Shown: positions 2,733 through 4,349, counted from the stretch's first letter. The stretch is DNA of 4,349 nucleotides from a virus (IMGVR_UViG_2713896773_000007:1-4349); one strand, 5' to 3'. A program made the numbers and translations. Notes: generated from the sequence alone by a model not told the origin.

Positions 2733-3464
2733 ATGAATAAAACCATAATGGCAGCTATCCGGGCGCATGCACTGGAGGAATCCCCGCGTGAGTGCTGTGG
2801 CTTCGTTATTCAGTCTGGCCGTCGCCAGCGCTACATTCCCGTGCCGAATACGCACGAAAATCCGACAGAACATTTTCGCATCGACGGCGAGCACTGGGCT
2901 AACGCCGAAGATATCGGGACGATTATTCGCGTCATCCACTCCCACCCGGGCGACGGTGCCCGGCCTATTCCGTCAGATCTGGACCGCCAGCAGTGCAACA
3001 ACTCCGGCTTGGTATGGGGTATTTACGCTCCGGACAGCGATGAATACGCCGAGATAATGCCGGAGGCGGTGCCGCTTATTGGGCGTCCGTTTATCCTGGG
3101 CTCGAATGACTGCTGGGGGCTGATTATGGACTGGCACGCCATTCAGGGCGTCACGCTGAACGATTTTCGCGTCGATTACCCGTGGTGGGAAAGCCAGTAC
3201 CCGGACAACCTCTATTTTGATAACTGGGAACGGGAAGGATTCGTCGAGTGCGATCCGGCACCAGGCTGCATGGTCATCATGCAGGTTGATTCGGATAAGT
3301 GGAACCATGCGGGCATCATCACTGAAGAAGGCGAACTGCTGCACCATCTTTACGGCCAGCCCTCGTGTGTCACGCCTTATGCCCGTGGCTATTTCAAAGA
3401 CCGCACGATGATCTGCGTTCGTCACAAATACCTGCCGCAGGAGATAAAGCCATGGCGCGTTTAA
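2733..3464 (+). CDS. K: Tail assembly protein K (lambda gpK-like; N-terminal JAMM/MPN domain plus C-terminal NlpC/P60 domain)
   Basis: 243-aa ORF. JAMM-like motif HSHPGDGARPIPSDLD (H69, H71, S81, D82) with upstream Glu residues. NlpC/P60-like Cys127 in GSNDCWGL and His192 in WNHAGII, with H204/H205 as possible third residue. This two-domain architecture is established for lambda gpK. 3-prime end overlaps I by 13 nt. Confidence 0.88.
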   Translation: MNKTIMAAIRAHALEESPRECCGFVIQSGRRQRYIPVPNTHENPTEHFRIDGEHWANAEDIGTIIRVIHSHPGDGARPIPSDLDRQQCNNSGLVWGIYAPDSDEYAEIMPEAVPLIGRPFILGSNDCWGLIMDWHAIQGVTLNDFRVDYPWWESQYPDNLYFDNWEREGFVECDPAPGCMVIMQVDSDKWNHAGIITEEGELLHHLYGQPSCVTPYARGYFKDRTMICVRHKYLPQEIKPWRV

Positions 3465-4045
3465 CCACCATTCGTCTGTATGGCGCACTGGGCGCCCGCT
3501 TCGGGCGTGTGCATAAACTGGCAGTGCAGACATCTGCCGAAGCGGTCAAAGCCCTGTGTATCAACTTCGACGGGCTGGAAGATTATCTGATGAATGCCAA
3601 AAAAAATGGCATGATCTTCGCGGTGTTTCGCGGAAAAAGGAATATCGGCACTCAGGACTTCCAGGAGCTGGCAGGAGACAGTGATATCCGCATTGCGCCG
3701 ATTATGGAAGGTTCGAAAAAAGCCGGAGTATTTCAGACCATCCTGGGCGCTGTGATGGTGGTGGCTGGTATCGCAATTTCTTACTTTAGCTCCGGTACTT
3801 TGGCTACGTTTGGCACAGGCCTTGCGATGTCGGGCGCGTCAATGATGGCAGGCGGCATTTACCAGATGCTATCACCTCAGCCCAAAGGGTTACAGGGGCG
3901 AGACGACCCTGACAATAAACCCTCTTATGCCTTTGGTGGCTCGGTGAATACCCTTGCGATGGGAAGCCCGGTCGCGCTTCTCTATGGCGTCCGTGAGATT
4001 GGCGGCGCCATCATCAGTGCAGGCATAGTCGCTGAAGACATCTGA
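3452..4045 (+). CDS. I: Tail assembly protein I (lambda gpI-like)
   Basis: In-frame ORF opens at 3365, but the real start is taken as ATG 3452 (MARLTTIRLYGALGARFGR...), which has RBS AGGAGA (3439-3444) 7 nt upstream and matches the lambda gpI N-terminus as I recall it (...ICLYGDLQRFGR...). Gly/Ala-rich hydrophobic stretch near the C-terminus, as in gpI. 197 aa. Confidence 0.82.
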   Translation: MARLTTIRLYGALGARFGRVHKLAVQTSAEAVKALCINFDGLEDYLMNAKKNGMIFAVFRGKRNIGTQDFQELAGDSDIRIAPIMEGSKKAGVFQTILGAVMVVAGIAISYFSSGTLATFGTGLAMSGASMMAGGIYQMLSPQPKGLQGRDDPDNKPSYAFGGSVNTLAMGSPVALLYGVREIGGAIISAGIVAEDI

Positions 4046-4065
4046 AAACTCCTTTCTGAATATCA

Positions 4066-4090
4066 AGCACCCAATTGGGTGCTTTTTTTA
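4066..4090 (+). terminator. Hairpin/T7 terminator-like element between I and J
   Basis: Stem agcaccc (4066-4072) / gggtgct (4077-4083), loop aatt, T7 at 4083-4089, then A. Followed by tggatgtaatATG; almost identical in layout and sequence to the element upstream of M. Confidence 0.55.
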
Positions 4091-4100
4091 TGGATGTAAT

Positions 4101-4349
4101 ATGGAAGCGATCACTGGTGCAAAGGGTGGCAGCCAGAAGCAGCACACACCTGTAGAACAGCCCGATTCGGCGCAGTCAATGGCGCGCTGCCGCATGCTGC
4201 TGGCGCTCGGGGAGGGGGAGTTTGCTGGTGGCCTGGATGCGACCCGGATATTCCTGGACGGTACGCCGTTGGGAAACCCCGACGGAACGATGAATTTTGA
4301 AAATGTGTCATGGGATTTCCGGCCTGGCACACAGACCCAGACACCAATA
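4101..4349 (+). CDS. J: Tail tip / host-specificity protein J (lambda gpJ-like), 5-prime fragment; continues beyond the window
   Basis: Open frame from ATG 4101 to the window end (83 codons, no stop). N-terminus MEAITGAKGGSQKQHTP...FRPGTQTQTP parallels lambda gpJ (MGKGSSKGHTPRE...FRAGEQEQTP) as I recall it. The ATG at 4090 is in another frame and hits a stop after about 21 codons. Confidence 0.85.
   Translation, partial: MEAITGAKGGSQKQHTPVEQPDSAQSMARCRMLLALGEGEFAGGLDATRIFLDGTPLGNPDGTMNFENVSWDFRPGTQTQTPI

Follow-up and report, generated by a model that had tools for sequence, protein, structure and literature searches.

Phage HK639 (HM208537 / NC_016158) carries, between its I-like tail gene and the counterpart of J, which is annotated as host specificity protein, an element annotated as 'terminator' at nt 19137–19160; this annotation is a prediction. 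Five further terminators are annotated in HK639 between the terminase genes and J, some of them directly behind core genes, such as those following gene 11 and the major tail gene, so that a cargo-free hairpin following a core late gene is nothing unusual in this group. In HK97 (AF069529), putative terminators are annotated before I and before J, where they close moron units. In the account of Juhala et al. (2000) that is summarised in PMC3594210, morons are units closed by hairpins of this type. In lambda (NC_001416), the I-J spacer is 60 nt long and free of cargo, and contains, at about nt 15466–15485 and ~20 nt past the I stop codon, a hairpin with a G+C-rich stem of 8 bp and a loop of 4 nt (AAACCGCC-TGCG-GGCGGTTTT), followed by a T-rich tail and then TTTATGGAG; the spacer reads ...GTGAAACCGCCTGCGGGCGGTTTTGTCATTTATGGAGCGTGAGGAATG, and the record attaches no terminator annotation to the hairpin. 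In the literature searched on HK639, on HK97 morons and terminators, on late-operon terminators, and on ribosome profiling of lambda, no experimental study of the I-J site was found. The I-J hairpin is already known, in kind and through the HK639 annotation; the present survey adds that lambda-like tail modules carry the I-J terminator as a conserved, resident element, and that it forms the downstream edge of a cargo hot spot.

Organization of the window and of the I-J spacer

The window, that is, the whole stretch of 4,349 nt analysed here, covers a portion of a lambda-like prophage's tail-tip gene cluster. The genes and cargo-closing hairpins recognized in it were as follows.

56–313, + strand: small open reading frame similar to HK97 moron gene 22 (~90% DNA identity to HK97)
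327–557, − strand: small open reading frame similar to HK97 moron gene 23 (~90% DNA identity to HK97)
686–710, + strand: hairpin before M, AGCCACC/GGTGGCT plus T7 (stem 686–703), closing the cassette of HK97 gp22/gp23 type
721–1071, + strand: M (Pfam Phage_min_tail)
1071–1841, + strand: L (Pfam Phage_tail_L)
1941–2690, + strand: open reading frame of the island inserted between L and K, HNH endonuclease (PHROGs)
2698–2721, + strand: hairpin before K, AACCCGC/GCGGGTT plus T7 (stem 2698–2715), closing the HNH-endonuclease island
2733–3464, + strand: K (JAB and NlpC/P60 domains)
3452–4045, + strand: tail assembly gene I, 197 aa (Pfam Lambda_tail_I PF06805, E 1e-06; stop codon TGA at 4043–4045)
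4101–4349, + strand: 5′ end of J, central tail fibre/tip protein, exceeding the window (tblastn to lambda and HK97 J)

The protein predicted for gene I shared 87% identity with the tail assembly protein of HK639, and the N-terminus of J (MEAITGAKGGSQKQHTP...) had the layout found in the J N-termini of lambda and HK97. HK639 was the nearest sequenced phage, with 89% identity from M to J and 97% at the I-J junction; the phage of the window differed from HK639, however, in the cargo upstream of M and in an additional HNH island that separates L from K. In HK639, a Q antitermination protein is annotated upstream of the same late operon, while the window carries tail genes only. A prophage of E. 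coli 21AR0133 shared 99.8% identity over nt 3700–4349, its upstream sequence being different and without the L-K island. A PADLOC search of the cargo proteins of the window gave no defence-system match.

The I-J spacer comprised 55 nt (nt 4046–4100), extending from the TGA of I to the ATG of J at 4101, and the following parts were distinguished in it and at its downstream end.

4046–4064, + strand: variable, G-poor linker of ~20 nt from the I stop codon to the hairpin (column entropy and G content)
4065–4084, + strand: I-J hairpin, with arms 4065–4072 (AAGCACCC) and 4077–4084 (GGGTGCTT) and loop AATT at 4073–4076
4083–4089, + strand: T7 (U7) tract after the stem (sequence and conservation)
4089–4095, + strand: Shine-Dalgarno-like TATGGAT, core GGA at 4092–4094, 6 nt before the J start
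4090–4155, + strand: out-of-frame ATG with an open reading frame of 21 codons (TAG at 4153–4155), probably not functional

The hairpin, which began 20 nt past the I stop codon and was oriented like M, L, K, I, and J, had a stem of 8 pairs, 5 of them G-C (−12.7 kcal/mol when folded alone), and the first two T residues of the T7 tract paired with the AA at the stem base. Downstream of the tract came ATGGATGTAAT and the ATG of J, the T7 tract ending 11 nt before the J start. On the minus strand, the hairpin was followed by GAUAUUCAG, without a U-run, so that the terminator shape was one-directional. The reference for an intrinsic terminator was a stem of ~5–14 bp, a loop of 3–8 nt, and a U-tract of ~4–8 or more U residues; in the I-J element, a G+C-rich stem, a short loop, an adjacent U-tract, co-orientation, and a non-coding position were all found. 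A strict scan (7 perfect Watson-Crick pairs, at least 4 of them G-C, a loop of 3–6, and a T5 run) returned three matches in the window, all on the + strand and each just 5′ of M, K, or J, against 0.002 matches per sequence in 2000 first-order Markov random sequences, and a laxer scan returned 14 sites compared with 4.2 ± 2.3 in shuffles, with the I-J hairpin ranked second. The terminator-like hairpin that a sequence-only reading of this DNA had placed at 4066–4090 is real, and its coordinates were right to within 1 nt. The junction of T-run and A(T/C)GGA recurred before M (704–715) and K (2715–2725), and the pre-M and pre-J junctions had in common a 27-nt repeat with 85% identity.

Nothing of substance distinguished the element from that of HK639: it occupied the same position between the I-like and host specificity genes, the sequence annotated as terminator in HK639 (AGCACCCAATTGGGTGCTTTTTTT) was exactly that of nt 4066–4089, the hairpin, T7, and ATGGATGTAAT-ATG were identical, and 1 base differed in the 55-nt spacer. 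The arrangement hairpin-T6/7-ATGG(A/G)-N6/7-ATG directly 5′ of a tail gene was shared with HK97, whose pre-J hairpin (AGCCACC/GGTGGCT) recurs in the window upstream of M. However, the HK97 pre-J hairpin follows morons 22 and 23, whereas the I-J hairpin of the window follows no cargo, and the stems differ (AGCACCC in the window versus GCCACC in HK97). The lambda hairpin resembled that of the window in its geometry and its cargo-free spacer, but its U-tract is interrupted (TTTTGTCATTT) and would therefore make a weaker terminator, J is served by a Shine-Dalgarno sequence of its own (GAGGA), and 27 nt separate the hairpin from the start codon. With morons, the site shares a hairpin of the moron-closing type and a junction that serves as moron insertion site in relatives. 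The spacer, however, had neither extra DNA with an open reading frame nor a promoter of its own (a search for open reading frames in the spacer and, at the threshold used, a scan for sigma-70-like promoters in or near nt 3452–4100 gave none), and the I-J element is thus itself no moron.

At a permissive Rfam threshold, the sole overlap with the spacer was Phe_leader (23.8 bits versus a gathering threshold of 55, E 0.96), which was set aside as a generic terminator look-alike. Also rejected was a long-range fold of nt 4040–4110 that paired an anti-Shine-Dalgarno-like CUCCUUU (4050–4056) with the J start (z −2.26), the linker sequence being unconserved in relatives (entropy ~0.75 bit versus ~0.06 in the stem among 54 distinct relatives). 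The linker was constant in length (~20 nt) and pyrimidine-rich, with G contents of 5% in the HK639 clade and 10% in the HK97 clade. A perfect 11-nt inverted repeat (TGATATTCAGA / TCTGAATATCA) was noticed at 671–681/4055–4065, each copy immediately 5′ of a terminator hairpin; it was not retained as a feature, as ~2 chance matches are estimated per window and the 11-mers are broken in HK97 and HK639.

Conservation of the hairpin in lambda-like tail modules

To gather I-J junctions, IMG/VR was searched with three I proteins (window, lambda, and HK97) that are mutually 30–49% identical, and spacers longer than 100 nt were counted as cargo.

HK639 clade: 81 loci, hairpin plus T-run in 80, cargo in 8, 31 distinct spacers
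HK97 clade: 79 loci, hairpin plus T-run in 78, cargo in 11, 49 distinct spacers
lambda clade: 81 loci, hairpin plus T-run in 81, cargo in 0, 21 distinct spacers

A hairpin with a T-run just 5′ of J was present at 239 of the 241 junctions, and cargo (146–941 nt) stood between I and J at only 19. An empty spacer of about 50–60 nt with a hairpin was found at 73 of the 81 HK639-clade loci, 68 of the 79 HK97-clade loci (46–56 nt), and all 81 lambda-clade loci, and the 55 nt of the window is the modal length of the HK639 clade (54–56 nt in 73/81). The distance from stop codon to stem was uniformly ~20 nt although the empty spacers were unrelated in sequence. When one genome per species was scanned, a terminator-like hairpin was present at 45 of 62 distinct junctions, among them those of Enterobacter, Kluyvera, Leclercia, Klebsiella, Citrobacter, Serratia, Pseudomonas, Stutzerimonas, and Achromobacter prophages; in the same scan it was absent from Morganella (spacers of 23–24 nt), Bordetella, Thermomonas, Sphaerotilus, and Azoarcus. 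As some relatives do without it, the hairpin is dispensable for tail assembly, and is better described as widespread than as indispensable.

Among 54 distinct HK639-clade junctions, the stem arms, T-run, and ATGGA were near-invariant (~0.05 bit), and positions 4084–4089 of the U-tract were unchanged in all 54, whereas the 4-nt loop and the linker (~0.75 bit) were as variable as third codon positions. In each of two clades, 9–10 loop sequences were carried on one stem. Stem variants were counted clade by clade against the clade consensus. Ten of the 11 single-transition variants gave G.U or U.G pairs on the + strand (binomial p ~0.006); the same 10 would be A.C mismatches on the − strand, and the reverse held for 1 of 11. 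Other than pairing in the sense transcript, little would readily account for this strand-asymmetric wobble. The further stem variants consisted of one compensatory change from G-C to A-U and four singleton transversions, each of which broke a pair.

Pairing was also assessed in an alignment of 34 sequences comprising HK97-type, lambda-type, and cargo-type hairpins and three more distant ones; a single alignment of all hairpin classes was left out of the pair counts because the HK639-type stems fell one column out of register in it. Standard pairs filled 96.6% of the cells versus 85.3% in shuffles, none of 500 shuffles reaching the observed value, and two-sided changes were present at 4 of 7 pairs. 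The covariation score was 0.439; shuffles gave 0.212, and slid partners no more than 0.15. In all of these comparisons, the loci are phylogenetically non-independent and the structure was read off the same sequences, and differences in stem between clades may reflect replacement by unrelated terminators rather than stepwise covariation.

As read from these substitution patterns, a sense-strand RNA hairpin and its U-tract are shown to be under purifying selection, in a position conserved across lambda-like tail modules, and the I-J element is very probably a selected hairpin of the sense RNA of terminator type. The earlier assignment to the terminator type was borne out both by this conservation and by the 'terminator' label on the same element in HK639. 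The U-tract adjoined the stem even where the Shine-Dalgarno sequence of J lay 8–20 nt beyond, as in lambda (GAGGA) and Pseudomonas (AAGGAA); a U-tract kept apart from the ribosome binding site fits a terminator better than a pure exonuclease barrier or an enhancer of the ribosome binding site.

Cargo at tail-gene junctions

Where cargo was present, it always lay between the I stop codon and a hairpin. Since the empty junction with a hairpin is the normal state and cargo lies upstream of the hairpin, the hairpin appears to be the resident and the cargo the addition. In the junctions compared, the I-J hairpin is shown to mark the point upstream of which foreign cassettes occur inserted. A cassette consisting of an int-alpA motif and an open reading frame of 265 aa (locus L032) used the resident AGCACCC hairpin as its 3′ end, and other cargo, such as that of L038 and L067, closed with AACCCGC-TTCG-GCGGGTT, which is the pre-K hairpin of the window. 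In the HK97 clade, the hairpin of occupied sites (AGCCACC) was one base away from the commonest hairpin of empty sites (GGCCACC), which places the breakpoints at the foot of the stem.

Several cargo open reading frames (L038, L060, L067/L071/L072, and L192/L203) encoded N-termini of lipoprotein or signal-peptide type, such as MKNLLVVLALIGLSGC and MIVKKILIPLIGAVLLSGC; their products are candidate surface or superinfection-exclusion proteins encoded adjacent to the receptor-binding gene. Two loci from Leminorella grimontii (L035 and L248) had a spacer of 146 nt that contained two terminator-like hairpins, CCCCGCCC...GGACGGGG and AAGCCGC...GCGGCTT, but lacked any open reading frame of at least 35 aa; this spacer may represent either a genuine remnant of cargo or a gene for a small RNA.

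The gp22/gp23 pair, with its terminator and ATGGA ribosome binding site, is situated between I and J in HK97 and between the tape-measure side and M in the window (nt 33–725). The 90% match to HK97 nt 14452–15145 extended through the annotated pre-J terminator of HK97, and, to judge from this match, the cassette has moved between tail-gene junctions along with its own hairpin. Upstream of the gp22-like open reading frame, and outside the HK97 match, which starts at nt 33, a fourth terminator-like hairpin, AGCCTCGC-ATAC-GCGGGGCT plus T6, was located at nt 1–25; it probably closes some upstream gene. The non-coding stretch from the start of the reverse-oriented moron gene at 557 to M, approximately nt 604–713, was conserved at 81–97% at the 3′ end of I-J cassettes and accompanied different open reading frames in the HK97-clade loci L170, L177, L188, L198, and L220. 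This shared cassette end includes the hairpin 686–703, had a fold z-score of only −1.96, and could contain a promoter or a small RNA.

Directly 5′ of the open reading frame of the L-K island, a match to the Rfam int-alpA motif (RF02996, 39.4 bits versus a threshold of 35.8) was detected at nt 1854–1921. The open reading frame itself matched the HNH endonuclease family phrog_374 (E 3e-59) and had no Pfam match. In L032, the motif (87% identical) precedes a different, Cys-rich open reading frame, the one of 265 aa in the I-J spacer. The int-alpA motif and the endonuclease may form a mobile (homing) unit that targets tail-gene junctions.

Probable function of the I-J element

The I-J element is best explained, with reasonable though far from complete confidence, as a resident Rho-independent terminator in the late operon, presumably Q-antiterminated, of a lambdoid prophage resembling HK639, in which it would insulate J. 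The physiology of insulation and read-through, drawn by analogy with lambdoid biology and from the Q gene of HK639, is proposed with moderate confidence. During lytic growth, Q-modified polymerase would read through the I-J terminator, and a single long late transcript would serve J together with the other tail genes. Polymerase without Q modification, coming from promoters of morons or homing endonucleases upstream or from stray initiation in the lysogen, would stop there, so that in the prophage J and the genes downstream of it would stay silent. Cargo that brought a promoter and landed between the I stop codon and the hairpin would be terminated automatically, which would make the junction a safe insertion site. 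The G-poor linker of ~20 nt would be long enough for the hairpin to form even with a ribosome on the I stop codon, and the U-tract would run directly into the ribosome binding site of J (UAUGGAU, 6 nt, AUG), so that J would be translated from its own start. Against insulation it must be said that both upstream cargo islands of the window have hairpins of their own (686–703 and 2698–2715), so that this role looks partly redundant here. A throttling of J expression relative to the upstream tail genes, as proposed in the sequence-only reading, is a possible further effect of the hairpin.

An element of mRNA stability or processing, acting as a barrier to 3′-to-5′ exonucleases for the upstream tail message or stabilising processed J mRNA at its 5′ end, is an unlikely alternative to the terminator, although the two roles are not exclusive. 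It would account for a stable hairpin acting on the sense RNA, for its location next to J, a gene longer than 3.4 kb, and for the hairpins behind other core genes of HK639; an exonuclease barrier, however, needs no U-tract, and the U6–8 tract is invariant and is kept outside the ribosome binding site in Pseudomonas and lambda.

The U-tract of an mRNA can act as an enhancer of translation by binding ribosomal protein S1, and the element might be read as an initiation module for J, in which the hairpin locks the upstream RNA, a weak ribosome binding site stays open, and the U-tract binds S1. Throughout the HK639 and HK97 clades, as well as before M and K in the window, the order hairpin-U7-AUGG(A/G)-N6-AUG does not vary, and the Shine-Dalgarno core of J is merely GGA beside an invariant U7 and ATGGA. 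This reading is nevertheless improbable as the main function, since hairpin and U-tract are kept in lambda and Pseudomonas, where J has a stronger Shine-Dalgarno sequence farther downstream. A secondary role of the U-tract in J translation is possible in the HK639 and HK97 clades, where the tract abuts the ribosome binding site.

It is very unlikely that the conserved block is a linker for recombination at the DNA level, in which ~30 bp of stem, T-run, and ATGG would serve as a patch of homology for the exchange of J modules or cassettes. The placement of the gp22/gp23 cassette, with hairpin, T-run, and ATGGA, before J in HK97 and before M here, the 27-nt repeat shared by these junctions, and cargo breakpoints within 1–2 nt of the stem would suit such a patch; a double-stranded DNA patch, however, does not predict a transition asymmetry of 10 versus 1 that is specific to pairing in the sense RNA, and the loop varies freely inside it. 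Recombination of this kind can coexist with a terminator, as a by-product.

The sequence-only reading had also suggested that the hairpin is the remnant of a lost cargo gene, that is, of a moron deleted from between I and J with only its terminator left, which now seems highly improbable. The junction is indeed a cargo hot spot, with 19 of 241 relatives occupied and morons 22 and 23 there in HK97, and the 146-nt spacer of L035/L248, with two hairpins and no open reading frame, resembles a remnant. However, three divergent clades typically have an empty junction with a hairpin, which is the sole state in the 81 lambda-clade loci, the uniform stop-to-stem geometry of ~20 nt is unlike that of deletion scars, cargo lies upstream of the hairpin, the empty-site hairpin AGCACCC differs from the usual cargo-closing AACCCGC, and selection on the stem is ongoing. 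That no cargo precedes the I-J hairpin, in contrast to those before M and K, was correctly noted but is not unusual, for terminators of HK639 follow core genes as well.

The ATG at 4090 exists and is out of frame, as had been pointed out, 11 nt before the ATG of J; the accompanying idea of a decoy start, whose dead-end peptide across the J start lowers J translation, is the least probable of all. The triplet follows a U-rich tract and is kept, in an unvarying frame (2 mod 3 relative to J), wherever the motif was found at junctions of the HK639 and HK97 clades, but it has no Shine-Dalgarno sequence of its own and overlaps the core GGA of that of J (4092–4094), the open reading frame ranges from 4 to 75 codons among relatives, and the triplet is replaced by CTG or ACG in 7 of the 81 lambda-clade loci, by ACG before K in the window, and by GTG in L286 (Trabulsiella), and is absent from the Pseudomonas versions. 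Its conservation is attributed to an extended Shine-Dalgarno sequence, UAUGG(A/G), of which it can be explained as a portion.

Beyond the terminator of the late operon, a broader and rather doubtful proposal is that selection maintains the joint of hairpin, U-tract, and ribosome binding site, from Enterobacteria to Pseudomonas, as a docking terminator, a safe harbour for promoter-bearing cargo, the joint being at the same time a portable 3′ end of cassettes. If this were true, the cargo harboured would be lipoprotein and signal-peptide morons and int-alpA/HNH homing units beside the receptor-binding gene, and hairpin-U7-AUGGR would carry cassettes between junctions, for example from I-J in HK97 to H-M here. 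Still more speculatively, transcripts ending at I-J might give an Hfq-binding small RNA composed of the U/C-rich, G-poor linker, the hairpin, and the U-tail.

The value of the finding is comparative and modest, and no new kind of mechanism is involved. In annotation, the element would be labelled as a predicted intrinsic terminator within the late operon, neither an anomaly nor the scar of a gene. It offers a well-defined site at which read-through of internal terminators by Q-modified polymerase may be tested, and, as accessory genes always lay just upstream of the I-J hairpin, it provides a simple rule for locating lysogenic-conversion or homing cargo near the receptor-binding gene.
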